Of a stretch of DNA of 16,384 nt, positions 1 to 16,384 are shown one piece after another (within the stretch, counting starts at the first letter, position 1; each line of letters opens with the position of its first letter). The notes below the pieces were generated by a model, which was given only the letters and a program-made list of their open reading frames with translations, was not told the DNA's origin and ran no database searches. Both the position numbers and the translations under genes were made by a program. This DNA is from a virus (taxonomy: Duplodnaviria > Heunggongvirae > Uroviricota > Caudoviricetes): IMG/VR virus record IMGVR_UViG_2563367003_000001; one strand, given 5' to 3'.

Positions 1-2160
<2,160 letters not shown>

Positions 2161-2236
2161 ACATGAGTCAATGGTGTAAGTATGTGAATGATATAAGAGG
2201 AAAAATAGAGCATAATCTCTACCTGAATGGCTATGT

Positions 2237-2272
2237 TGCAATACACACTGCAATACACACTGCAATACACAG
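2237..2272 (+). repeat. Three tandem 12-bp direct repeats TGCAATACACAC/G (candidate integrase arm-type sites or operator)
   Basis: TGCAATACACAC TGCAATACACAC TGCAATACACAG; related copies near the other end of the element (13310..13350). Confidence 0.8.
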
Positions 2273-2331
2273 AAATCAATGTACAAACCATTCAATTATC
2301 AACCCACAAATGAAGTGAATAAAGATTTGTT

Positions 2332-3093
2332 ATGAATATTATAGATACCCTTCAAAATGACCTAGAGCGCGCAGTAGCGCTTCAAAACATACTAATTGCA
2401 AGAGCTACAGGAGCCCAGGATGAAGCTAATAATGATTATTTGCTTCTAAGAACATATTTCTTACAAAATCCTCCTTTACATCAGCTATTACCAGAGTTTG
2501 TGAGAACTAATCGCTCACTAAAAGAATTTTGGGGATTTATAAAAAAGACTGAAAAGTATGCCCCCCGGAGAGATTTGATTTATAAGGCATTTCAGCCGAT
2601 GCTGGATTATCTAGAAGGGAAAAATAAAGCTCCAGCGGATGAAGACATATCTGATGTATTAAGAAAGTTTAACGAGGATGGAGTCCACGCCGTTTGGATA
2701 AAAGCACTTGAACGGCGCCATACAGATCCGGATGGTGCGATAACCTCCGCAAGAACACTTCTTGAAACAGTTTGCAAACACATTCTTGATGATATGGGCA
2801 TTCAGTATAATAATAAAAATATTGAAATGTCAGAGCTTTATAAAACTCTTTCAAAAGAACTTAACCTATCTGCCGACCAACATACTGAAAATATCTTCAA
2901 ACAAATTCTCGGCGGTTGTTCTGCAGTTGTAAATGGGTTAGGTACTCTTCGTAATAAACTCGGTGATGCACATGGAACGAACAGCTCATCAATTAAGCCA
3001 TCCCCAAGGCATGCCGAACTTGCAGTAAATTTATCAGGCTCAATGGCTCTTTTTTTAATTAACACTTGGTTAAACCTTAAAGATGGGAAATAA
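2332..3093 (+). CDS. HEPN-domain protein with Rx6H motif (Abi_C / abortive-infection-like), 253 aa
   Basis: C-terminal motif GTLRNKLGDAHG fits the HEPN R-x(4-6)-H signature seen in AbiJ/AbiU2/Abi_C proteins. AT-rich gene in the cargo position of the element. Family assignment from motif memory only. Confidence 0.6.
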   Translation: MNIIDTLQNDLERAVALQNILIARATGAQDEANNDYLLLRTYFLQNPPLHQLLPEFVRTNRSLKEFWGFIKKTEKYAPRRDLIYKAFQPMLDYLEGKNKAPADEDISDVLRKFNEDGVHAVWIKALERRHTDPDGAITSARTLLETVCKHILDDMGIQYNNKNIEMSELYKTLSKELNLSADQHTENIFKQILGGCSAVVNGLGTLRNKLGDAHGTNSSSIKPSPRHAELAVNLSGSMALFLINTWLNLKDGK

Positions 3094-3179
3094 CGTATAA
3101 TGAAGTAACACGAGCAATTAGTTAATCATTATACTCAGTCGATTAATTTATTTTGACGACTCGTAAGCAATTTTTCGAT

Positions 3180-3199
3180 GAGGGCGGAACTCCGCCCTC
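3180..3199. repeat. Perfect palindrome GAGGGCGGA-ac-TCCGCCCTC in a 360-bp non-coding spacer
   Basis: 9-bp arms, 2-nt spacer; no flanking U-tract on either strand, so not a canonical intrinsic terminator. Confidence 0.4.
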
Positions 3200-3495
3200 G
3201 GTGCTAACCTATGAGAAACGATATCTCTTCCACCGATACCATAATATTAGGTATCGCGAAGAAGCCCCAAAATCAGTGTGTTGCTTTTACTACCCAAACT
3301 ACCTGTAGTTTCATAGTTGAGTTGCAAATTTGCAATTCGACTACCAGCCACAAGGCGTAAATTTGCGTCGTCAGGAATATCAACGAGTTAGCATATGAAT
3401 AGGCCAAACGGCCACAAACCTCACTTTTGAGGCTTGCTCATTTATTAGCTGGCTATGGTAAGGCCCATTTTGGGGCCGTCGAGAAAATCAAAGAG

Positions 3496-3771
3496 TTATC
3501 GCCGCAGTCTGTCAGGCTTCTTCCACTGGTACGATGCAACGTTCTGGCGTTGTCCCTGCCTCCGCCTAGCTGCCAGTATAGCCAGCACTTTGGTGCGGAT
3601 GACTAAGCAATCCTGTCCGTTCAGTTCTATACCGTCACGCCACATAACCTCAGCAACCACACGAGCGTAATTTTCAGCGGTGACACTGCCCGGCTGCGTG
3701 GCCTGTTCGTCATGCTGGTGGCTGACTCCACCAGCATAGCAGATTACTTTCAGTAGTTCGGATTCAGTCAT
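3496..3771 (-). CDS. Hypothetical protein (91 aa), last gene of the packaging operon downstream of terS
   Basis: ORF 12 bp after the Nu1-like stop, same strand. No recognised similarity; an overlapping plus-strand ORF 3455..3670 is less protein-like. Confidence 0.4.
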   Translation of the reverse strand: MTESELLKVICYAGGVSHQHDEQATQPGSVTAENYARVVAEVMWRDGIELNGQDCLVIRTKVLAILAARRRQGQRQNVASYQWKKPDRLRR

Positions 3772-3782
3772 AGCGTACTACG

Positions 3783-4310
3783 TTACTTATCCTTATTCAG
3801 CTGCAACTTATCCGGTACGTTTCCTGTACTTTCCATCAGATAATCAGCCAGTATCTGTGGGAGGTTGTCAGCAACGCCGGCACTGGCATTACAGGCTTTA
3901 GCCACTTCCTTTTTAAGTCCATCCAGCATAGCCGGAGTCATCTGTGGGAAGCGCCTTTGCATGGTAAGCGGCAGGCTGTCCATGATAGATGAAATCTGAC
4001 TCGCCAGTTTGGAAAGAACATACATACAAAACTCTGTATCAATAACGTCGCCGCGTTCGCGCTCGTTTTTAAGCTCCTGCGCCTCTGCCTGTGCTGTCAG
4101 TAATCTGATCCTGACGCGTAAAAGTTCATCGTCATCAATATCGCCCGTTTCGTTTGTAATCTGGCTGATTGCATTGTTAACCCGATTATCTATTACACTG
4201 GCAACATCATAGAACGCCTCACGGCCCTTACGCTCGACGGGAATCACTCCCCACTTATCGAACGCAGTGGCGCTTACACGGCAACTTTTTGCCATGTTTT
4301 TTTTGTTCAT
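3783..4310 (-). CDS. Small terminase subunit, lambda Nu1-like (satellite-encoded TerS)
   Basis: Middle and C-terminal regions align with lambda Nu1 from memory (AQAEAQELKNERERGDVIDTEFCMYVLSKLASQISSIMDSLPLTMQRRFPQ versus AQADAQELKNARDSAEVVETAFCTFVLSRIAGEIASILDGLPLSVQRRFPE). Sits ~150 bp downstream of the cos-like site, as in lambda. Start chosen at MNKKNMAK; ORF track extends to 4334. Confidence 0.8.
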   Translation of the reverse strand: MNKKNMAKSCRVSATAFDKWGVIPVERKGREAFYDVASVIDNRVNNAISQITNETGDIDDDELLRVRIRLLTAQAEAQELKNERERGDVIDTEFCMYVLSKLASQISSIMDSLPLTMQRRFPQMTPAMLDGLKKEVAKACNASAGVADNLPQILADYLMESTGNVPDKLQLNKDK

Positions 4311-4399
4311 CAGGTGTAATTTCATTGATACCACAACTTAATTACTGTTTCAGGTTGGTGTATTGATTGTATTTTTCTCTTATTATTCATACAGATATA

Positions 4400-4500
4400 G
4401 CGAACAACAAAACCACCACCAGTCCCCTTAAAATGCTCATAAATAGAGAAAACCCGCGCGCCTGACGCCCCGTAGCCTGTCAGATCGCCGGAAAGGACCC
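4400..4500 (-). other. Lambda-like cos site (cosQ-side flank, cosN-equivalent at 4459..4470, start of cosB)
   Basis: Minus strand reads GGGTCCTTTCCGGCGATCTGACAGGCTACG GGGCGTCAGGCG CGCGGGTTTTCTCTATTTATGAGCATTTT. Recalled lambda sequence is ...GGGTCCTTTCCGGTGATCCGACAGGTTACG GGGCGGCGACCT CGCGGGTTTTCGCTATTTATGAAAATTTT. Flanks are near-identical; the central 12-mer differs at ~5 positions. Confidence 0.7.
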
Positions 4501-4526
4501 GCCAGCCAGAGCGGGCCCTAATTTCA

Positions 4527-4910
4527 TCAACCAATCAGCTTATAGCGACCATCCCGTGCATTGCGGCGTACACGCTCAATCTTGAGGCATAGCGCCGCAT
4601 CTGGCTTTTTTGGGACAGGTACGCGGCAATATTCAGAAGCGCGAGGAATATTATTTATCCAGTCGATCACTTCACTTAAATACCAGGCCTTACGCCCTTC
4701 CGTAACCTGCACACGCTCCGGGAACTCTCCACTAGCCTCAAGGTTTAGCAGTGTACGCCGACTCAGGGTTGTAATTTCCATCACCTGATTCATATCAACA
4801 AGGCGCTCGCTTAAACACATTTTGTCAGCGATAGCTTTTAATTCCTCTACAGCTGGATTCGGGTACATCATTTCGGCAATTGGCTTAAGGTCATTGTAAT
4901 CATTCTGCAT
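4527..4910 (-). CDS. AlpA/MerR-like HTH DNA-binding protein (127 aa), between the decoration gene and cos
   Basis: MEITTLSRRTLLNLEASGEFPERVQVTEGRKAWYLSEVIDWINN fits the AlpA-family HTH pattern. RBS GGGGGA 5 nt upstream of ATG at 4910. Function (regulator versus packaging factor) unknown. Confidence 0.6.
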   Translation of the reverse strand: MQNDYNDLKPIAEMMYPNPAVEELKAIADKMCLSERLVDMNQVMEITTLSRRTLLNLEASGEFPERVQVTEGRKAWYLSEVIDWINNIPRASEYCRVPVPKKPDAALCLKIERVRRNARDGRYKLIG

Positions 4911-4921
4911 TGTATCCCCCT

Positions 4922-5263
4922 TTACACACGAGCCAGCGGCTGAACAGAAATACCTGAGCCAACAAACGCGGCAACCTTTGCCGACAGTTCTCTTACAGAC
5001 TCAGGCCAGTTCAGAGCATCAACATTTAAAACACCTGTCTTATAAACCTGTGCCTGTGTTTTTTTCGCTGTGTCGATTTGTACAGCGGAAACATAAACCG
5101 CTTTGCCTGCGCTCGTTCCATCCCATACCACTAGCGCACCAGTTGCATCTTCCTGCATCAGTGGCGTAAACGCAGGTATTACCCCTTTATTGGCTGAAAA
5201 TATCCCCAGCGTAGTAACCAGTGCTTCAGTGCCAGACATGAGTTCAGTGTAATGAGTAGCCAT
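4922..5263 (-). CDS. Head decoration protein, lambda gpD-like (satellite-encoded)
   Basis: 113 aa; AFTPLMQEDATGALVVWDGTSAGKAVYVSAV...QVYKTGVLNVDALNWPES...AFVGSGISV parallels lambda gpD ([31 protein letters not shown]...[18 protein letters not shown]...[10 protein letters not shown]). Strong RBS AAGGGGGAG. Confidence 0.8.
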   Translation of the reverse strand: MATHYTELMSGTEALVTTLGIFSANKGVIPAFTPLMQEDATGALVVWDGTSAGKAVYVSAVQIDTAKKTQAQVYKTGVLNVDALNWPESVRELSAKVAAFVGSGISVQPLARV

Positions 5264-5272
5264 TGCTCCCCC

Positions 5273-6313
5273 TTAGCCAATGCGAACGGTAACAAAACGA
5301 TTGATGCGGGCCGGTATTGGCTGTGGTGCTGAATGTGTCTGCACATATTCAATAGCCGGATCACCAGGCACAATATAGTTTTTCGGTGCAAGTTCGGCTT
5401 TAGTCAGCCCCATTCGGATTAGCTCCGGATCCTGAATACCGCCATAGGCGACAATCCCCTGAAGAGCCGTATTGCCAAGCACCATCAAATCAGGATCAAG
5501 GAAATGTTTTTCAGTTCCGTCCTCGTCGGTATAACGCCCGCTGTATACAACAATCGCAACATCGCCCATATACCCTTTAAAACTCACCGAATCACCAAGG
5601 TCTTTAAGGGCCGTTTCCAGTTCGGAATTAGAACCACGACGGGTATCCAGAGCCTCTTTTATCGCTCTGAATGAACGGTATTTCTTCCATACATTACCGC
5701 CCATAATGATGATATTAGTGACGCCCTCACTAAATTCTGCGTAGCTCTCAATATCATCATTTGGATCAAAAGTTTCTTTATCCTTACCTGACCACTCAGC
5801 ACCGCCAGACTGAGTGATGATATTTTGTGGTTTAATATTCCAGTCCAGCTCATAACGTTCAATACCATCGCCCTCAATGATATTTTTCCCCGTTGTGATT
5901 GCCTGAACGGCAAGCCATTCAATACGTGCACGAATAGCTTTAGCCTGATTTACAATCGCCTGTTTAACTTTAATATTACGCGCTCCAAAAGCATTGTATT
6001 GCTCAGGTGATACACCAGCAGGGCGCACAGCTAACTTATTTGGATCAATGCTGCTTTTCGGCTTCATATAGCCTGGACGAATTGTTTTTGATTCGTACCC
6101 TTCGTCACGTGAAACTTTACTACCCACCATAGGAGAACAAAACGCTGCAATTGGGATATTTGGATCGTCGATTGTATCAAGAATAATATCGCGCGATTCA
6201 AACATTACCGAGCGAGTAAAAAACAAACTGGTAAACAACGCATTTAGTTGTTTTTGTACATCTACAGCATTAACCACCTGTACAAGCTGGGTAGGCGAAT
6301 ATAAATCAACCAT
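5273..6313 (-). CDS. Major capsid protein, lambda gpE-family homolog (divergent, satellite-encoded)
   Basis: Shares blocks with lambda gpE: ITQSGGAEWSGKDKETFDPNDDIESYA, RRGSNSELETALKDLG, GDVAIVVYSG, GYMKPK. Start set at MVDLYSPTQ (RBS AAGAGG); ORF track extends upstream to 6487. Confidence 0.85.
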   Translation of the reverse strand: MVDLYSPTQLVQVVNAVDVQKQLNALFTSLFFTRSVMFESRDIILDTIDDPNIPIAAFCSPMVGSKVSRDEGYESKTIRPGYMKPKSSIDPNKLAVRPAGVSPEQYNAFGARNIKVKQAIVNQAKAIRARIEWLAVQAITTGKNIIEGDGIERYELDWNIKPQNIITQSGGAEWSGKDKETFDPNDDIESYAEFSEGVTNIIIMGGNVWKKYRSFRAIKEALDTRRGSNSELETALKDLGDSVSFKGYMGDVAIVVYSGRYTDEDGTEKHFLDPDLMVLGNTALQGIVAYGGIQDPELIRMGLTKAELAPKNYIVPGDPAIEYVQTHSAPQPIPARINRFVTVRIG

Positions 6314-6487
6314 ACGCATCCTCTTTGCATTCATTAAAAATAATTGTGGATATATGCTATCACCGATATTTGTCATGCGAATACATGCAACCGAGTGCAA
6401 TGTTGTATAAAGTTTTGGGATGACAACTTCAGCACGGATAATTAGTGTTAATATCTTCACTCCCTTTGGTCTGGATTTATGTAGCAT

Positions 6488-6521
6488 GCCGGAAAATTTA
6501 TTTTTTTTCCGGCCTTTTTTA
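6488..6521 (+). terminator. GC-stem hairpin with T-tract (plus-strand orientation) between ssb and the capsid gene
   Basis: GCCGGAAAA-tttatttt-TTTTCCGGC followed by CTTTTTTA on the plus strand; on the minus strand the hairpin is not followed by a U-run. Confidence 0.4.
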
Positions 6522-6531
6522 TTGGCAATAT

Positions 6532-6981
6532 TTAAAACGGAATATCATCTCCCCATTGCTCATTATCTCCCACTGGTGGATGGCTTCCTTGCTGATCTGC
6601 CTGTTGTTTTGCTCTGTTCAGTGCGTCAGTAGCCTGACCCTGTTGATCTTTTTTGCCGCCCGGTCGCACCGTTCGCGCACTGATTACGCTGTCTGCGATA
6701 ACCTGCCAGCCCTGCCGCGTTTCACCGTTCTGTCCAGTCCACTGGCTCACCTGCATATTACCCGCCACGCTCAGGAGTTCGCCTTTGTGATGCTTTGCCA
6801 GCGTGTCGGCTTGTCTGCCAAACGCCAGCACAGATAACCACATCGTCGCCGTTCCGTCATCTGCCTGGCTGCATGGCAAAGATACCGCCATCCGTGCCAG
6901 TGTCATGGGTGTTCCCTTGCTGGTATGTTTTACCTGTGGGTCGTCCACCAGCCGCCCGTAAGCTGCTATTTGCGCCGTCAT
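6532..6981 (-). CDS. ssb: Single-stranded DNA-binding protein (SSB) with C-terminal acidic tip ...WGDDIPF
   Basis: 149 aa; OB-fold-like N-terminus (AYGRLVDDPQ...), Gln/Gly-rich linker, and the DDIPF tail characteristic of bacterial/phage SSBs (E. coli SSB ends DDDIPF). Confidence 0.8.
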   Translation of the reverse strand: MTAQIAAYGRLVDDPQVKHTSKGTPMTLARMAVSLPCSQADDGTATMWLSVLAFGRQADTLAKHHKGELLSVAGNMQVSQWTGQNGETRQGWQVIADSVISARTVRPGGKKDQQGQATDALNRAKQQADQQGSHPPVGDNEQWGDDIPF

Positions 6982-6992
6982 GCTGCCTGCTC

Positions 6993-7235
6993 TCAGGACT
7001 TAATATTGATGGTTGTCACTTCCTCCGCTTCGGCAATCTCCCGTTCGGTCAGCGTGGCAAAGTTTGCAGCCGCCGTTGTCATGAATGCGCTTATCAGTTC
7101 GGGATGTGCTTTCGCGTATCCTTCCCCGGCGTTGCGGTCTATTGCCTTAATCGCCACCCTTAGCCAGTGTTCAGCCATATCAAGGGCGCGGTAATGTGGC
7201 TTTATATGTTTGTTCAGTTTTCCTGATGTGTGCAT
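6993..7235 (-). CDS. Hypothetical protein (80 aa) immediately downstream of the iteron origin
   Basis: ORF with GAGGGGG RBS ~10 nt upstream; no recognised domain. Confidence 0.45.
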   Translation of the reverse strand: MHTSGKLNKHIKPHYRALDMAEHWLRVAIKAIDRNAGEGYAKAHPELISAFMTTAAANFATLTEREIAEAEEVTTINIKS

Positions 7236-7280
7236 TTTTATTTTTACCCCCTCGTTTAAAAAGTTTTTTGTGCACCACCA

Positions 7281-7510
7281 CCTTGTCTACCTTGTCTACC
7301 TGATTAGTTATCAGGCCAGTAATGGCGCGGGTTTCAGGGAGGTAGACAGCCCCAAATAGCTGTCTACCTCATCTCTACCCGTCTCCTTACCTGTCTACAA
7401 AAATGGGTAGATAAGGTAGATAACAGGTAGACAGTGAAAAATAGTTATCTACCTGCATTAATACATTGAAATAAAAGTATTTTATTTCAGTCAGGTAGAC
7501 AAGGTAGATA
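7281..7510. repeat. Replication origin: iteron array (>=11 copies of GGTAGAYA/TRTCTACC in both orientations) plus AT-rich segment
   Basis: CTTGTCTACCTTGTCTACC (7282..7300), GGTAGACAG (7341), TGTCTACC (7361), CTGTCTAC (7391), GGTAGATAAGGTAGATAACAGGTAGACAG (7407..7434), TATCTACC (7447), GGTAGACAAGGTAGATAAC (7493..7511); AT-rich 7457..7490. Lies directly 3' of the helicase gene. Confidence 0.8.
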
Positions 7511-7524
7511 ACCATTGCCATTTT

Positions 7525-9276
7525 TTATAAAAACGCATCGCAATCATCAGTAGTCGTTGCGTTGGTCTGCGTGACTCCCTTAACTTTTCGCGTAATATAT
7601 TCATATCCGTAAACTTTCGCCGCTGACCTCATAGCCTTTCCGAACTCATTCACGCTCAAACATTTCCCCTTTCCTGTATATGCCATGAAGGCCATATAGA
7701 CACGGTAAAGGCTGTTTCTGGTCGTGTACTTCACGGTGTCACCACCACCGCCCATCATTAGCCCACGAGCTTCCTCCAGAAACTCCAGCGCCGCGCAAAG
7801 CTCAACAACCGGATCCGTTTGCTGCTTTATTGCCAGAGCTTCATCACCGTCACGCTGTTCCAGTAATAAAGCCCGTGCCTTTTCAGGGTCAGCAAAATTA
7901 GCCAGCAAGCGGCGGATAATTACGGGGATTTCTGCCGCTATCTTTTCCGGTAATTCCTTGTCTTTTTCGTCCTCCCTTACAATGTTGTCGAACCGGAAAA
8001 TCACCCGACGGCGTGACACACCTCCGGCCCGTTCGGTAAAGATCATCGGGTCGTTATTGGTTGCCAGTACCACCGCCCTTATTATCGTCGTGAATCGCTT
8101 CTCATATTTCGGGTTAATTTCAACGGGATCGCCTCCCGTGATTTTCTTGATGCCCGTGCCTTCCCCCGTATATTTCGGCTGATCGGCAAGGACGATAAGA
8201 CGACTCCCGACAACCTGCGCACGCCCTCCTGCATCATCGAGTGATGTCATCTCTGCGCTTACGGTGTTCTGTTTGCCAGCAAGCAGGGTGGCAATATGGG
8301 TAAATGTACTCTTACCGCTTCCCCCGTCTCCGGTGGCCTCAATGAACATCTGCCAGTCGTACCGGTTCGCCATAATCATGTACAGCGCGGCACATATACG
8401 CATCATCTTGCGCGGGTCTTTTCCGGCTGCGTGCTCAAGCCATTTATGAAAGTTTGGCGCGTTATCGCGGATGTTCTCCCCTGGTGCTGGTGGCGTGTAC
8501 TCAATGCCGTTGTGCGTGGTGATCCAGTTCTCCGGCGTGTGCGGGGAAAATTCCCCCGTTTTCAGGTCAAGCGCACCATTGGCGAACGGCAGCAAATCGC
8601 CGGACGGCTCGCCCATTGGTTCGGCAATAACTTTTAACGCTTCAACGGCGTTATTGATCACGCGTTTGCTGAAAGTGGCCCTGTGCTCTGAATAGATCGC
8701 CACCATTTCGCGGCTCAGCTCCATTGTGCTGATCGGACACCATACCCCGCCGCGCCATACGTGAACGATTTCACTTTCCGGATGCACACAAACGCCATCA
8801 AAGCGCTCGGCAAGCAGCTGCGCGCGCTCACTGTCTGCCATCTGTGAAAGTTGCGCCTTTTGCTTCGTCGGAAGATTAAGCACCAGGCTTTCCCCACGCT
8901 CGCATTCCTCTTTGAGTCGCGGCAACTGGTCGGATAAATCCACTGGGCTGGTGTCAGTAATCCCCGCGTATTCGTGTACGGTCTTCACTCCAGCCACAGC
9001 CAGTAACGTAACAATCTGCGTCATGCTGTGCTCTGTGATATGTCCTGCGCGGTAAACACGCACACACTGACGATCTTCATCAATGATCCGGTAATCGGTG
9101 ATGTTTTTCAGTTGCTCATCAGCCAACACGACAGGCGGCACATCGTCGGCGGCAATATGTTTACCCGCCCATTCCTGCCACTCTTTCGCATGGCTCCACG
9201 CATCACTACCTGCAAAGATGATTATCTCTGTCAGTCTGTCGCGTGGCTGTTTTTTTAAGTTCGGTGCCAGTTTCAT
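7525..9276 (-). CDS. Replication initiator: SF3 helicase of the D5 / P4-alpha family (primase-helicase-like), 583 aa
   Basis: Walker A GDGGSGKST and surrounding D5_N/P4-alpha C-terminal-like sequence; followed by the iteron origin. The N-terminal ~250 aa may be a primase-like domain (not verified). Confidence 0.75.
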   Translation of the reverse strand: MKLAPNLKKQPRDRLTEIIIFAGSDAWSHAKEWQEWAGKHIAADDVPPVVLADEQLKNITDYRIIDEDRQCVRVYRAGHITEHSMTQIVTLLAVAGVKTVHEYAGITDTSPVDLSDQLPRLKEECERGESLVLNLPTKQKAQLSQMADSERAQLLAERFDGVCVHPESEIVHVWRGGVWCPISTMELSREMVAIYSEHRATFSKRVINNAVEALKVIAEPMGEPSGDLLPFANGALDLKTGEFSPHTPENWITTHNGIEYTPPAPGENIRDNAPNFHKWLEHAAGKDPRKMMRICAALYMIMANRYDWQMFIEATGDGGSGKSTFTHIATLLAGKQNTVSAEMTSLDDAGGRAQVVGSRLIVLADQPKYTGEGTGIKKITGGDPVEINPKYEKRFTTIIRAVVLATNNDPMIFTERAGGVSRRRVIFRFDNIVREDEKDKELPEKIAAEIPVIIRRLLANFADPEKARALLLEQRDGDEALAIKQQTDPVVELCAALEFLEEARGLMMGGGGDTVKYTTRNSLYRVYMAFMAYTGKGKCLSVNEFGKAMRSAAKVYGYEYITRKVKGVTQTNATTTDDCDAFL

Positions 9277-9572
9277 TTTTTGCCCCTGAATGCGTTAATC
9301 ATGCTTTTCATTTTCTGGATGTTTCCCCGCGCTTTTTCCCTGCTGATGGGCTTACTGCGGGGTGCGGCATATACCAGGGAAAAATCACGCCGGAACTGAT
9401 AAACAGGCATCACGCAGTCATAGCTATACCCCTCACGACGGTAAGTGATGCGCCGTTCTGCCACGCCTTTAATCGTTACCGTGCCGCCGTATTTATCGCG
9501 GTAAATATCGCCGTTCATAAATTCAGGCCGAGCGGGGCCGCTGGCAATAAAGCCAGAATTTTTCATTTCCAT
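9273..9572 (-). CDS. Hypothetical protein (99 aa), translationally coupled to the helicase gene (ATGA overlap)
   Basis: ORF in operon context; no recognised motif. Confidence 0.45.
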   Translation of the reverse strand: MEMKNSGFIASGPARPEFMNGDIYRDKYGGTVTIKGVAERRITYRREGYSYDCVMPVYQFRRDFSLVYAAPRSKPISREKARGNIQKMKSMINAFRGKK

Positions 9573-9589
9573 ATTATTTATTCCTCGAC

Positions 9590-9811
9590 TTAACTCGACT
9601 TATTTGATAGCAGGGCACTATTTATTGCGTCATTGAGTTTTTCTGCTGCTTCATCAATAAGTGACAACAGGCCATAAGCAATATTTGCATCTTCATTGTC
9701 ATTTATGCAATCAAGCCACATATTTAATATTGCTTTTGCTGAATTATTTAAAGTTAATGAACTTTCTGCACATGCTAACAATTTAAAAAAGACTTCCCGT
9801 TCTGTATTCAT
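9590..9811 (-). CDS. Hypothetical protein (73 aa), AT-rich
   Basis: ORF in operon context; composition differs from neighbours. Confidence 0.4.
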   Translation of the reverse strand: MNTEREVFFKLLACAESSLTLNNSAKAILNMWLDCINDNEDANIAYGLLSLIDEAAEKLNDAINSALLSNKSS

Positions 9812-10003
9812 TTAATCCCCCACCAGCTTACTTTCTTCCTCAATCAAAAAACTAGCGACACTTCCCGAAAGACGCGCCAGTAGGCTCGCCAGTGCGGATA
9901 TATCAGCATCTGTAATTTTGTTCGGGTATACCTCAAGAAGGCGGCAAATAATTTCTGTCTGGTGCGCACGTTCAGCGGCTTCGTGTAATGTGATTTCCTG
10001 CAT
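9812..10003 (-). CDS. Hypothetical protein (63 aa)
   Basis: ORF abutting the next gene with no spacer (stop/start coupling). Confidence 0.4.
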   Translation of the reverse strand: MQEITLHEAAERAHQTEIICRLLEVYPNKITDADISALASLLARLSGSVASFLIEEESKLVGD

Positions 10004-10188
10004 TAATGCACCTCTTTTAATTCATACACTGCTGAAATAATGACTTGTGATAAGCCATATTCTGATGATTCGCTTCTCACCGCAGCAATAGCCGTCTGAA
10101 CATTAACAGCCTTCACATTCTGAGCGATACCAATTGTGTGGCCTATTGGGTTAACAGCTCGGGCAAATACACGGAAGGTTTTAAGCAT
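10003..10188 (-). CDS. Hypothetical protein (61 aa)
   Basis: Start ATG overlaps the stop of the upstream 65-aa ORF (ATGCTTAA). Confidence 0.4.
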   Translation of the reverse strand: MLKTFRVFARAVNPIGHTIGIAQNVKAVNVQTAIAAVRSESSEYGLSQVIISAVYELKEVH

Positions 10189-10378
10189 GACTCACTCCCT
10201 GGCGGATTTTTGCAGCGAATACAGCAACACAACCGGACGGGCAACGGCTACGCGCTTCGCGTTCCGTCCAGGCGGTTACGTGGATGATTTGAGATTCTCC
10301 GGCACTCAGTGCCAGAAAACGCCACACAAAGGCCGTTTGTGTGTGTACAAGGTGTGGTATATGATTTACAGCAACCAT
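10181..10378 (-). CDS. Hypothetical protein (65 aa), first gene of the leftward operon
   Basis: Strong RBS AGGAGCCGTT-ATG. It is the 3' part of the 243-aa ORF 10181..10912 in the track; only the portion downstream of this RBS is considered real. Confidence 0.5.
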   Translation of the reverse strand: MVAVNHIPHLVHTQTAFVWRFLALSAGESQIIHVTAWTEREARSRCPSGCVAVFAAKIRQGVSHA

Positions 10379-10390
10379 AACGGCTCCTAG

Positions 10391-10568
10391 TTTACGTTGT
10401 TGGTTAGACGCCCCGTATGTGTTCCCAGCACTGCGGGGCGTTGCTCTTTGTATTTCAACAATTCTTTCGGTGTGTTTCATGTTATGAGCGCATGAAACAC
10501 ACGTCAAGGCTTTTTGTATTTCTTTTTTTGTGTATACTGAAACACACCGATGATTAGGAGTTTCAGAA
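10391..10568. promoter_or_regulatory. Divergent promoter/operator region between the leftward operon and the rightward RHH gene
   Basis: Inverted repeat GACGCCCCG...CGGGGCGT (10408..10440); palindrome TGTGTTTCATG...CATGAAACACA (10472..10500); second direct copy TGAAACACACC (10539..10549); -10-like TATACT (10531..10536); RBS AGGAG before ATG at 10569. Confidence 0.55.
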
Positions 10569-10874
10569 ATGGCAACGGCTAACAAAAACGCAAAATCACA
10601 ACTGACAACTGTCAGAGTCCCACTAGATGTTATGCAAGGGATGGAATCCGTTAAGCTGGACGGTGAAAGCAATGCCGGATTTATCGTAACCGCCATGCGC
10701 GGTGAAATCGCCCGCCGCCAGGCAGAAGGAAGCGGAGAAAATCCCCTCGTGTCTTCACTGGATGCCTTAGCTAAGGTCGAACAAATCGGCATCAAGGCAG
10801 CGGAGGAAATCGGGCAACTCGTAGCCGTCGCTCGTGAAGAACTCCAGCGGCGTAAAGCCAAAGAATCTGAATAA
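10569..10874 (+). CDS. Putative ribbon-helix-helix-type transcriptional regulator (101 aa)
   Basis: N-terminal beta-strand/helix pattern (TTVRVPLDVMQGMESVKLD...NAGFIVTAMRGEIARR) plus coiled C-terminus. AGGAG RBS. Divergent from the replication operon. Fold assignment is inference. Confidence 0.5.
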   Translation: MATANKNAKSQLTTVRVPLDVMQGMESVKLDGESNAGFIVTAMRGEIARRQAEGSGENPLVSSLDALAKVEQIGIKAAEEIGQLVAVAREELQRRKAKESE

Positions 10875-11224
10875 TTAGTATCAGCGCCGTGATGTGAGTA
10901 ACTACGGCGCATTGCTATGTAAATACTGGCAATAAACAGAAAAGGTAGTTCTACTCCGAATAATTTTATCTGACACTACTCCTGAACTAACATGCGCTTA
11001 TCTTACAGGATATAAATATAAATCCATAAAATCACGATTAAATAAAGTCGCTCCAAACATAAACCACACCCAACGCTTAACAAGATAGCAACAAACAGGT
11101 AAATAACTTGCAGAAATATTTATCGCAAGGATTATCATTATTAATGACAAATCACTTTACCAAGTCATTCCCCTCTCTTATCATAAAGAGAAAGTAATAA
11201 ATAAGTTAAGGGAGTTAGAATGCT

Positions 11225-11761
11225 ATGAATCTAAAAAAAATAGCCACAAACACAAAAAACAAGATAACAGAAACATTTAATAAACTTATATTAGAGGCAT
11301 CTAAAACCCCCACACAAGATGAAATTAAAATACTTGAGAGAAGGAGTAAGAAGTTTAATTACTCCTTTTTCTCATACGCAGTCACAGGAGCTATAATAGT
11401 TTTTTGCTCTCAACCATTAATTAAATACGCAAACCCAATACTTATTTTATTGAGTGGTCTGTTACTGTCTATCATCATTATCATTCTCAGAATGATTTAT
11501 ATTTCACAAGCGAATGCATCATGGACAACCAAAAAACGCTCACATGTACTAGTTCATTTTCTTTCTGCATGTTTCATAGCATCAACATTGACGTTGCTAT
11601 ATCAGGCTTACGATAATAACATCACACACAAATTGTACTGTAAAAATATACAACAACTTATTGAAAAAAGGATAGAAACAGAAAAAAACATCAGCATATT
11701 CAGTGGGATGCAATGCACCCCGGTATATGATTACTCTTTATTTGGATTTAATCTCTTATAA
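11225..11761 (+). CDS. Small membrane protein (178 aa, ~3 predicted TM helices), very AT-rich cargo gene
   Basis: Hydrophobic segments FFSYAVTGAIIVFCSQPLI, ILILLSGLLLSIIIIILRMIYI, VLVHFLSACFIASTLTLLY. Strongly AT-rich versus the flanks. No recognised family. Confidence 0.55.
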   Translation: MNLKKIATNTKNKITETFNKLILEASKTPTQDEIKILERRSKKFNYSFFSYAVTGAIIVFCSQPLIKYANPILILLSGLLLSIIIIILRMIYISQANASWTTKKRSHVLVHFLSACFIASTLTLLYQAYDNNITHKLYCKNIQQLIEKRIETEKNISIFSGMQCTPVYDYSLFGFNLL

Positions 11762-11770
11762 AGAATGTTA

Positions 11771-11804
11771 TTACTGATTTGAGTACAAATTCTCAAATCA
11801 GTAA
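11771..11804. terminator. Bidirectional intrinsic terminator hairpin between convergent genes
   Basis: 13-bp perfect stem TTACTGATTTGAG / CTCAAATCAGTAA with 8-nt loop, A/T-rich flanks on both sides; lies between the plus-strand membrane-protein gene and the minus-strand alpA gene. Confidence 0.65.
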
Positions 11805-11830
11805 TTCATAATATTTTATTCTGAGATAAT

Positions 11831-12058
11831 TTAAACTACCCACTCACCTCGAATCCATGCCTGCACTTCTGAAAGACGATATGCAACAGCAGTGGAACCA
11901 ATCTTGATCCGCTTAGGAAATTTTCCTTCCTTCTCCAGCTTCCAGCGTGTGCTGTTCGCAAGAGTGGTTAGCTCCCGACATTCTTTCTCACGGATCATTC
12001 GGTCAATGTTAGGAATGTACTCCAGACCCTTTTTATCAACAATTGCCATTTTTTTCAT
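11831..12058 (-). CDS. alpA: AlpA-family HTH protein (excisionase/Vis-like regulator), 75 aa
   Basis: IREKECRELTTLANSTRWKLEKEGKFPKRIKIGSTAVAYRLSEVQAWI fits the AlpA pattern; immediately downstream of the integrase gene. Confidence 0.8.
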   Translation of the reverse strand: MKKMAIVDKKGLEYIPNIDRMIREKECRELTTLANSTRWKLEKEGKFPKRIKIGSTAVAYRLSEVQAWIRGEWVV

Positions 12059-12059
12059 G

Positions 12060-13295
12060 TTAACCAGCCTTTTGTTTGAGGATTGTCACTTTTGAATCAG
12101 CACCTGCGATGCTATTGAGATATGTAGTCCAGAGTTCCAGAGCATCCAGTTTTTTAGCCATAAACTTACTCCGGTTGTAAACACCTGCCACGCCAGGTAG
12201 CGCATGGCCTAACAGTTGTTCTACTACATAAAATTCAACACCGAGATCACTTAGATGAGTAGATAGCGTTCTTCTAAGGTCGTGTAGTGACCATTGTTTT
12301 TCATGGCCCAAACGTTTACCGATTTTCCCCCCAATCTTGCTTACGCTTTCTCTAATTCGCAGACTTCCCAGCACATAACCAGTATGTTTTGTCTCTTCGT
12401 GAACATCCGTTACCCACTGTCGTAGAATTTCAGGTACTGGTCTGACGATTTCAACACCAGTTTTTGAGTGATCTTTTGGTACAGTCCAAACCCAACTTTC
12501 GAGATCCCATTCGCTCCATTCTGATAATCGGGCTTCACTCATTCGACATCCAAATACTGTACAAAGCACAAACATTTTTCGCGTGTATTCAGACATTAGT
12601 TTTAAATCAGGCTCGACAAAAATTGCCTTCCAGAGCTGGCCGAGTTCGGCTTCATCCAGAACCCGATCCCGCTTACCTGCAATCTGCCCCACATCACTCA
12701 TGCGCAAATCCTTTAAAGCATCACACGTCGCGTACTGGCGTACCCGACAAAAACGAAGAGCTAATTTAGTGTCAGAAAAAACATACGCCGCCATAACTGG
12801 TGCATTACGTTTAATTCGGTCAAAACAGTCCAGCCATTCATATAGGTGAGTGTCATTTACGGGCAAATGACCGATATAGGGAAAGATATGCTTTCGAAAT
12901 CTGCCAAGCGTTACAGCATGAGTTTTACGACGCACCTTACAGTAATTTTCATACCAGTAATTTAGTGCATCCTCCACTGTAACCGGCTTTAAGCGTTCTT
13001 CAGCCTGAATCTTAATCTGGATACGCGGATCACGTTTGTCAGCCAACCAACCACGGCACTCGTCGCGCTTTTCCCTTGCCTGTTTGAGTGACATATCAGG
13101 ATATTTACCCAACGTTAGCCAGACCGGAGCAGCCCGGCCACCTGCTAACCTGTAGAAGAAAACAAAGCTCACAGCCCCTTTAGTACTCACACGAATAGAA
13201 AGCCCCTTTCCATCAGCAATGGTGATCTGCTTTTCTCTGGGTTTCCCCAGATATCCTTTAAGCGCTTTGTCGCTCAGTTTGTTCTCGCCAGCCAT
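12060..13295 (-). CDS. int: Tyrosine site-specific integrase, P4-type
   Basis: N-terminal arm-binding-like region (LSDKALKGYLGKPREKQITIADGKGLSIRVSTKGAVSFVFFYR), catalytic-box residues (HDLRRT, LLGHA...GVYNRS). Start set at MAGENKLSDK; ORF track extends to a GTG at 13346. Confidence 0.9.
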   Translation of the reverse strand: MAGENKLSDKALKGYLGKPREKQITIADGKGLSIRVSTKGAVSFVFFYRLAGGRAAPVWLTLGKYPDMSLKQAREKRDECRGWLADKRDPRIQIKIQAEERLKPVTVEDALNYWYENYCKVRRKTHAVTLGRFRKHIFPYIGHLPVNDTHLYEWLDCFDRIKRNAPVMAAYVFSDTKLALRFCRVRQYATCDALKDLRMSDVGQIAGKRDRVLDEAELGQLWKAIFVEPDLKLMSEYTRKMFVLCTVFGCRMSEARLSEWSEWDLESWVWTVPKDHSKTGVEIVRPVPEILRQWVTDVHEETKHTGYVLGSLRIRESVSKIGGKIGKRLGHEKQWSLHDLRRTLSTHLSDLGVEFYVVEQLLGHALPGVAGVYNRSKFMAKKLDALELWTTYLNSIAGADSKVTILKQKAG

Positions 13296-13309
13296 TTTTA
13301 GCCCCAAAA

Positions 13310-13350
13310 AGCAATACAAGCTGCAATACAGAGATGATTGCAACACACAG
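13310..13350 (+). repeat. Direct repeats related to TGCAATACA (AGCAATACA, TGCAATACA, TGCAACACA) upstream of int
   Basis: Same motif and orientation as the 3x12-bp array at 2237..2272 at the opposite end of the element. Confidence 0.7.
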
Positions 13351-13457
13351 ATAACGAGGAAAATTCAGTGAAAGCACCAGATAAACTTATTCTTTATTAT
13401 CAAAAGATTAAGTGTAAAAACCAGCAACTACACGAAAGCCTCAGAAAGCCATGCTAA

Positions 13458-13703
13458 GTGCTTCGGCTTGACATATCCCGGCGTAAATTCAGAGGTGGAG
13501 CCGCCACGGGAGCGGATAACCTCACCGGAAACAATCGGCGAAACGTACAGCGCCATGTTTACCAGCCCCGGAATTTGTGAGAGATAGACTTTCTCCGTGG
13601 TGAAGGGATAGCTCTCACGGAAAAAGAGACGCAGAAACAGCGGATCAAACTTAAATTTCTGCTCATTTGCCGCCAGCAGCTGGGCGGTTGTGTACATCGA
13701 CAT
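13458..13703 (-). pseudogene. E: Lambda-like major capsid protein E, N-terminal fragment (residues 1 to ~91), interrupted by the inserted element
   Basis: MSMYTTAQLLAANEQKFKFDPLFLRLFFRESYPFTTEKVYLSQIPGLVNMALYVSPIVSGEVIRSRGGSTSEFTPGYVKPKH matches the lambda gpE N-terminus; the frame then reads 9 unrelated codons (LAWLSEAFV) into the element and stops at 13428. Confidence 0.9.
13459..13468. repeat. Right junction core (attR-like): TGCTTCGGCT
   Basis: Identical to 2151..2160; lambda E sequence continues on the high-coordinate side. Confidence 0.7.
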
Positions 13704-13758
13704 AAAAAAATCCCGTAAAAAAAGCCGCACAGGCGGCCTTTAGTGATGAAGGGTAAGG

Positions 13759-15718: not shown

Positions 15719-16384
15719 GCGCGCTTTTGAAGGTAACGTCACCACGCGGCGAACGATGGCCTCTTCCAGCCAGCACAGAAACATCTGGCTCGCCTGACGG
15801 GATGCGACGAATTTTCGCCGCCCCATAAAGTGCGCCCACGACTCGTTCGCGCTGGCCCGTGCCGTGGAGTAGCTCATCTGGGCGTAATTCCGGGAAAGCT
15901 GCTCATACGAGACACCCAGCCCGGCAGCGATATACCGCAGCAGTGACTGCTCAAACACGGAGTAGCCGTTATCCGTGTCCTGAGCCGTCTGCAGGTTCAG
16001 TGAGTCCCCCGGCATCAGGTGTGGCACTTTTGCGCCTCCCAGCCGGACCGGTGCTGCGGCGTAATACGCGGCAATTTCACCAATCCAGCCGGTCAGCTTG
16101 TCCCGCTGCTCCTGACTGTTCGCGCCCAGAATAAAATCCATCGCTGACTGCGTATCCAGCTCACTCTCAATGGTGGCGGCATACATCGCCTTCACAATGG
16201 CGCTCTGCAGCTGCGTGTTCTGCAGCGTGTCGAGCATCTTCATCTGCTCCATCACGCTGTAAAACACATTTGCACCGCGGGTCTGCCCGTCCTCCACGGG
16301 TTCAAAAACGTGAATGAACGAGGCGCGCCCGCCGGGTAACTCACGGGGTATCCATGTCCATTTCTGCGGCATCCAGCCAGGATA
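15413..16384 (-). CDS. B: Portal protein B (lambda gpB), C-terminal part; 5' end lies beyond the window
   Basis: Translation reads to ...FESGLRQSTEEEESDSRAA and overlaps the C start; ORF continues to the window edge. Confidence 0.88.
   Translation of the reverse strand, partial: YPGWMPQKWTWIPRELPGGRASFIHVFEPVEDGQTRGANVFYSVMEQMKMLDTLQNTQLQSAIVKAMYAATIESELDTQSAMDFILGANSQEQRDKLTGWIGEIAAYYAAAPVRLGGAKVPHLMPGDSLNLQTAQDTDNGYSVFEQSLLRYIAAGLGVSYEQLSRNYAQMSYSTARASANESWAHFMGRRKFVASRQASQMFLCWLEEAIVRRVVTLPSKARFSFQEARSAWGNCDWIGSGRMAIDGLKEVQEAVMLIEAGLSTYEKECAKRGDDYQEIFAQQVRETMERRAAGLKPPAWAAAAFESGLRQSTEEEESDSRAA

Follow-up and report, generated by a model that had tools for sequence, protein, structure and literature searches.

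Doubled 12-bp motifs in both attP arms of a helper-embedded satellite: putative arm-type sites that covary with the integrase N-terminal domain

Helper-embedded PICIs, the type of element found here, were described by Tommasini, Mageeney and Williams (2023, NAR Genom Bioinform 5:lqad036; PMC10111431). Their prototype, Eco567.11capE, belongs to the group E:Phage_cap_E:80 and has the identity block agccgaagca. In E. coli NRG857c, induction of the helper made this prototype excise, leaving the capsid gene restored, as followed by qPCR and read counts. Every such attP carries a “doubled motif” (tgTGTATTGCantgTGTATTGCa / TGTATTGC) in two co-oriented places, 81±2 and 132±2 bp from the attP centre. 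The integrase arm domains, AlpA or an unknown protein are suggested as binders, and the binder is left open. The same paper proposes helper late transcription through the split capsid gene as a possible driver of int, and it states that the motif is missing from fis-site PICIs, which have closely related integrases (PMC10111431). Our literature search found no later paper testing the doubled motif.

In phage lambda, the arm-type sites of attP are bound by the N-terminal domain of Int, and IHF sites lie between the arms and the core. For the KplE1 IntS and P4 Int integrases, the arm sites overlap the int promoter, and negative autoregulation has been shown (Panis et al. 2010, PMC2951348).

The stretch of DNA that we analysed, the window, has 16,384 nt. 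It is a lambdoid prophage in which an 11.3-kb satellite at 2161-13458 (11,298 bp) interrupts the major capsid gene E at codon ~80. The genes around the satellite are lambda-type head genes, and the Phage_cap_E profile matches both flanks (profile positions 1-78 at the right and 94-328 at the left). When joined, the flanks 1900-2160 and 13469-13730 align end to end and gap-free to intact lambda-type E genes. The island encodes Int, AlpA, a D5_N/DUF5906 primase, an E-like capsid protein, a D-like decoration protein and a Nu1-like small terminase; E, int, alpA and the primase gene are all on one strand. The gene order int-alpA-...-primase-ori-late genes and the size of ~11 kb are those of a PICI. 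The published identity block agccgaagca is the reverse complement of TGCTTCGGCT, which is present at both junctions, and the element is a helper-embedded PICI of the 11capE type, site group E:Phage_cap_E:80. The same arrangement is present in hundreds of E. coli genomes, and the island has no match among deposited phage genomes. A tRNA attachment site is excluded, the window being without a tRNA gene. The element type, the capsid-gene insertion, the motif, its two positions and the arm-site hypothesis have all been known since 2023. What we add is an extra unit, a conserved fifth, degenerate unit, and a family-wide covariation of the motif with the integrase N-terminal domain. The features on which the analysis depends are the following.

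2151..2160, + strand: core identity block TGCTTCGGCT at the left junction
2161..2171, + strand: ACATGAGTCAA, candidate core-type site beside the core, present in 11 of the 11 capsid-site arms recovered with a search pattern of which it formed part
2237..2272, + strand: int-distal arm units, three 12-bp units head-to-tail, TGCAATACACAC TGCAATACACAC TGCAATACACAG
2332..3093, + strand: AbiJ-like cargo gene with an Abi_C (HEPN-type) C-terminus (Pfam PF14355, 1.3e-23; PADLOC AbiJ, 2.2e-21)
11831..12058, - strand: AlpA-family excisionase/regulator (Pfam PF05930, 2.8e-15)
12060..13295, - strand: tyrosine integrase, 411 aa (Pfam PF13356, 3.7e-19; PF00589, 1e-16)
13310..13333, + strand: int-proximal doubled motif, AGCAATACAAGC (13310-13321) and TGCAATACAGAG (13322-13333)
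13339..13350, + strand: degenerate third unit TGCAACACACAG, 5 nt beyond the pair
13398..13410, + strand: IHF-consensus match TATCAAAAGATTA between the arm units and the core, with a putative role
13459..13468, + strand: core identity block TGCTTCGGCT at the right (int-proximal) junction

The initial annotation, made from this sequence alone, had reported three 12-bp tandem repeats ~80 bp inside the left junction and co-oriented copies upstream of int at 13310..13350, and it had argued that in the circular form the repeats would lie around the crossover core. The three units are confirmed at 2237-2272, both in the sequence and by Tandem Repeats Finder (2237-2271, period 12, 2.9 copies, 100% matches, score 70, consensus TGCAATACACAC). 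The array begins 76 nt inside the left junction, close to that estimate, with units 1 and 2 at the canonical offsets of 77 and 89 nt past the core and the extra third unit at offset 101. The copies at the right are also as described, the last of them degenerate, and the int-proximal pair starts 15 nt upstream of the int ATG (13295, - strand). All units of the left and right sets are co-oriented, on the + strand. The 7-mer GCAATAC occurs 7 times in the window, where 2.65 are expected, and a count this high came up in one of 200 shuffles; the + strand units of the two arm arrays account for five of the seven. When we reconstruct the circular form, the crossover core does lie between the two sets of units, which have the same orientation and start 235 bp apart.

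The 10-bp TGCTTCGGCT is the only sequence common to both junctions. The 7-bp overlap is likely TTCGGCT (2154-2160), because TTTGGTT is all that the two junctions of the Cedecea relative have in common. From the centre of this putative overlap, the distances are 80 bp (2237-2157) and 132 bp (13465-13333), which agree with the published 81±2 and 132±2 bp. Sequence (as the reverse complement), host gene, 10-bp identity block and the two co-oriented places are also the same as in the published motif. There are two differences: the int-distal arm of the window has three units where the published form has two, and the paper counts four half-sites, to which we add the conserved fifth, degenerate unit of the int-proximal arm. 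As for inverted core-type sites around the core, none is clear by eye, with just one unconvincing CATG on each side. The window has three perfect matches to WATCAANNNNTTR, where 0.77 are expected, and the match at 13398-13410 is one of them. The int-distal arm has no clear IHF site. An IHF reading was considered for a conserved TGAT at offset ~27-31 of that arm.

An integrase scan of species-representative genomes gave three loci only, and we therefore turned to motif and protein scans of IMG/VR. There, an alignment-based scan returned almost only near-identical capsid-site integrases, and a blind scan for GCAATAC-N4-TGCAATAC returned 120 stretches. In at least 33 of the 120, an integrase homologue starts within ~12-65 nt of the pair, and some of these homologues are only ~50% identical. 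The distant integrases sit in portal, ClpP, TerL, gpA and gp10-like late-gene fragments, insertions that are other helper-embedded site groups. For the capsid site, 11 distinct int-distal arms keep the (T/A)GCAATAC(A/T) pair with its 12-bp period at an offset of 76-77 from the core. Both the 65-nt spacer from ACATGAGTCAA to the pair and the sequence past the pair are largely unrelated among those 11 arms. The pair is kept in the Kosakonia and Cedecea elements, with integrases 89% and 83% identical. The int-proximal pair, the degenerate third unit and the IHF-consensus site are kept where the integrases are 83-93% identical, the IHF-consensus site with one mismatch. Among capsid-site relatives the degenerate unit is almost always conserved as (T/C)GCAAC(A/G)C, with ATGCAACGC in one of them, and in most ClpP-site relatives it is TGCAACGCC. 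The spacing between pair starts across attP is 234-235 bp in seven elements, 232 bp in a portal-site element, and 233 bp in an excised element of the fis type, whose motif and core are both different. A motif search in related attP regions had been proposed as a check by the initial annotation, and its outcome is that the pair recurs at a conserved position, and that fis-type elements carry their own version.

Two units are the norm in the int-distal arm. There are two in three E. coli elements (L001, L002 and L003), in the Kosakonia element and in the Cedecea element, and the ten distinct capsid-site arms besides that of the window all have two, at offsets of 76-77 and 88-89 from the core. 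Among complete E. coli genomes, 41 share both this arm and its Abi cargo, and each of them is shorter by exactly 12 bp at this point. On this comparison, the third unit of the window is a private expansion. It would have arisen by replication slippage that duplicated the first, near-identical 12-mer, and the extra unit would lengthen the array away from the core, leaving both canonical sites in place. Expansions are also seen elsewhere, with four int-distal units in L295, three int-proximal units in L298, and three TTGTGATACACC units in the int-proximal arm of L273, a fis-core relative. The extra unit is thus one instance of a recurrent slippage polymorphism. Scans of IMG/VR and metagenomes for three-unit arrays returned mostly unrelated minisatellites on giant-virus or eukaryote-like contigs, L295 and L298 being the only relevant hits.

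Relatives outside this clade have other doubled motifs at the same place, such as TGTTTATACA, GAGTACCCCAC, GATGACTACAC and TTGTGATACAC, and four of these motif classes share one fis core, TACGGCATGAAC/T. The fis-site element L128 of E. coli and LR881103, its packaged form after excision, have a tandem TGTTTATACAnn with a 12-bp period. LR881103 gives a contiguous attP, with a co-oriented pair on each side of the core, 233 bp apart. Contrary to the published absence, fis-site PICIs carry their own doubled motif at the same positions. Two unlike doubled motifs occur together in L253 and L258, ~330 nt upstream of int: close to int there is AGTTGTTCCA or TGGCTAG, and ~215 nt from it GTGCCCCAC, after which comes the block that characterises fis-type arms. 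L253 has three inverted copies of TGGAACAACT, and L258 has TAACC-type repeats there. These look like recombinant or nested arms.

The different motif classes allow us to ask which protein the motif follows. Using ~20 representatives in ~7 classes, for most of which outside the helper-embedded elements the int-proximal arm alone was seen, we compared pairs of the same class with pairs of different classes. Identity in the N-terminal 100 residues of the integrase separates the two sets with an AUC of 0.994. For the rest of the integrase and for AlpA alike, the AUC drops to 0.53; these values are descriptive and are not probabilities, as the sequences are related and the classes few. Individual pairs illustrate the pattern. 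L128 and L260 have the same motif, with 76% identity in the N-domain and 68% in the rest. L128 and L248 have the same fis core and different motifs, with 61% identity in the N-domain and 81% in the rest. Class-specific residues are RVS/SFVFF/PxW in the clade of the window versus KVT/SWVFT/deletion in the fis-type. They would cluster in a presumed beta-sheet segment of the arm-binding domain, a placement that we take from the Pfam family and from the known lambda and Tn916 integrase N-domains. A single-sequence AlphaFold model of integrase residues 1-100 had a pLDDT of 43, too poor to place the residues, and was discarded. The covariation makes the integrase N-domain a more likely partner of the motif than AlpA or host factors.

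The integrase consists of an N-terminal arm-binding domain, a SAM-like domain and a catalytic domain. PF13356 (Arm-DNA-bind_3) spans residues 7-93, and the N-domain matches the structures PDB 3JU0 and 3JTZ, both N-domains of CP4-like integrases. Arm-type sites should go with an integrase whose N-terminal arm-binding domain is separate, with a repeated motif that stands at fixed distances in both attP arms and is unrelated to the core, and with a motif specificity that follows the integrase N-domain; all three are seen here. We estimate at roughly 80% the probability that the satellite's own integrase uses the units as arm-type binding sites. This reading is favoured because the motif class tracks the integrase N-domain, and not AlpA or the rest of the integrase. 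The corresponding part of the initial annotation, that these are arm-type sites, is thus upheld as a probable reading by the Arm-DNA-bind_3 domain, the fixed position and the N-domain covariation. Its other part, that the repeats could couple excision state to expression of the HEPN/Abi cargo, finds no support, as the motif is kept whatever the cargo: it is present with Abi in the window, with DUF262+HEPN in L002, and with no annotated gene for ~650 nt in L001.

Other readings have to be weighed against this one. It is unlikely, in our view, that an AlpA-type excisionase or recombination directionality factor binds the units, bends the arms and sets the direction of recombination. Tandem direct repeats are a common target of directionality factors, among them lambda Xis, P2 Cox and KplE1 TorI, which makes this reading more plausible, and alpA directly follows int. 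AlpA is also listed as a possible binder in PMC10111431. However, AlpA does not track the motif, as the AUC of 0.53 indicates. The class with motif TGCAATACA holds two quite different AlpA types, so that identical pairs occur with AlpA proteins of two lengths whose putative recognition helices are very different. Conversely, the AlpA proteins of L128 and L253 are 95.6% identical despite different motifs, where L253, as well as L258, is ambiguous in its class assignment, having two different doubled motifs upstream of int. Moreover, the characterised directionality-factor sites lie on one arm, whereas the motif here is on both arms and does not follow AlpA.

The units could also be operators for int and cargo, bound by another regulator of the element or by one of the host, and dispensable for recombination. 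The right set lies between a weak promoter-like site on the - strand (13418-13389) and the int ATG, and the left set, 60 nt 5' of the Abi ATG, comes just downstream of a weak promoter-like site at 2188-2216. Both matches are near chance level; the one at 2188-2216 is the sole sigma-70-like match near the left units, weak at 9/12, with 1.0 expected by chance. We searched eight distinct arm variants for an outward promoter conserved in the int-distal arm, and only three of them have a promoter at a fixed offset (shuffles give ~0.2 per variant). No conserved promoter overlaps the repeats and no particular cargo is associated with them; the cargo varies while the motif and its distance to the core stay fixed. 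A spacing of 232-235 bp across the core is hard to reconcile with two independent operators, and a host factor is made improbable by the different motif classes found within one host species. We regard the operator reading as quite unlikely. Some interference of bound integrase with the Abi promoter is possible: Abi is the only + strand gene at that end, and its promoter must therefore lie within 170 nt of the core. The AbiJ-like/Abi_C gene adjoins the int-distal arm, on the strand opposite to int, and is outside the recombination site. Hardly credible, finally, is that the repeats are neutral, slippage-prone DNA without function. The unit number does vary, in the window as in L295, L298 and L273, but the pair keeps its place from genus to genus, even with integrases only 50% identical, amid diverged DNA.

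For the favoured reading, that of arm-type sites for the satellite's integrase, the anatomy, conservation, spacing and covariation are established, and from them we infer binding, bridging and autoregulation as follows. Excision would join the ends of the satellite into an attP of ~290 bp. Its order would be the int ATG, 15 nt, two 12-bp units and the degenerate third, ~110 nt with the IHF-like site, the core TGCTTCGGCT, 76 nt, and then two 12-bp units (three in this copy). Integrase protomers would contact the units through their N-terminal domains and the core through their C-terminal domains, and the bent arms would be bridged into a recombination complex as in phage lambda, probably with IHF. 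Any int promoter would be separated from the ATG by the int-proximal units, so that integrase bound there probably also represses its own gene.

The arrangement resembles that of the lambda attP (P1, P2, P'1-P'3) in having a repeated, partly tandem motif that is unrelated to the core on both arms, a separate N-terminal arm-binding domain, and an IHF-consensus site between arm and core. Lambda and HK022, which have the same arm sites and different core specificity, are paralleled here by one motif found at many late-gene cores. It differs from lambda in belonging to the P4/CP4-57-type Arm-DNA-bind_3 lineage, in its 12-bp period, and in having a pair immediately upstream of int; the sites here are putative. 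With the KplE1 (CPS-53) IntS/TorI and P4 Int/Vis systems, it shares an int gene that abuts the attachment site and, putatively, arm-type sites that overlap the int promoter region. The difference is that self-repression by the integrase was shown there and would be expected here.

The comparative result is that related satellite integrases come with one and the same architecture and with differing motif sequences. Tracking by the N-domain would narrow the published three-way uncertainty about the binder to one candidate, and the motif classes are a natural domain-swap set for testing how the arm specificity is recognised. For annotation, the pair marks precisely the outer limits of the satellite attP and the start of a variable slot for defence cargo. 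Tentatively, and with more doubt than confidence, we suggest that an exchangeable specificity module, made up of the doubled 12-bp motif together with the integrase N-domain, is shared by enterobacterial PICI integrases beyond the helper-embedded clade. In the int sense, each unit would have a common GTGTA-like half and a class-specific half, and the module would be reshuffled independently of AlpA and of the core-binding and catalytic part of the integrase. If so, recurrent gains of units (2 to 3 to 4) would offer an easy route to altered integrase occupancy, and thereby to a changed excision frequency or a changed expression of int and of the adjacent defence cargo.

The window contains several other features of the satellite and its helper. 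Core-ward of the int-proximal units, the block 13351-13376 (GATAACGAGGAAAATTCAGTGAAAGC here and AAAGAAAAACACTGGAACAA in the fis-type) is similar across the arm-motif clades, and may belong to the int promoter or bind a factor that the clades have in common, for instance AlpA. Nine-bp iterons (ACCTTGTCT / GGTAGATAA and relatives, in both orientations) are found at 7280-7516, just 3' of the primase gene; their motif is unrelated to the arm units, and the field is probably the satellite replication origin. The satellite's own E-like capsid gene (5273-6487), D-like decoration gene (4922-5263) and Nu1-like small terminase gene (3783-4334) are all on the - strand. Self-integration is unlikely, as the satellite capsid gene differs in sequence at the attachment site (PMC10111431). 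There are two variable cargo slots, 2273-3500 and 11000-12000. The first is the int-distal slot, with the AbiJ-like/Abi_C gene here and the alternatives given above for L002 and L001. The second is a low-GC stretch (0.30-0.36) between an Icd-like gene and alpA, with a 178-aa ORF at 11225-11761 that has no match to a PADLOC defence family; in its place, L003 has a gene annotated as a putative phage abortive infection protein. Inside the portal gene of the prophage, 16175-16211 (+ strand) matches the joined flanks of the portal-site PICI (L063/L078) with one mismatch in 37 nt, so that the same helper prophage appears to have an unoccupied second attachment site for a satellite.
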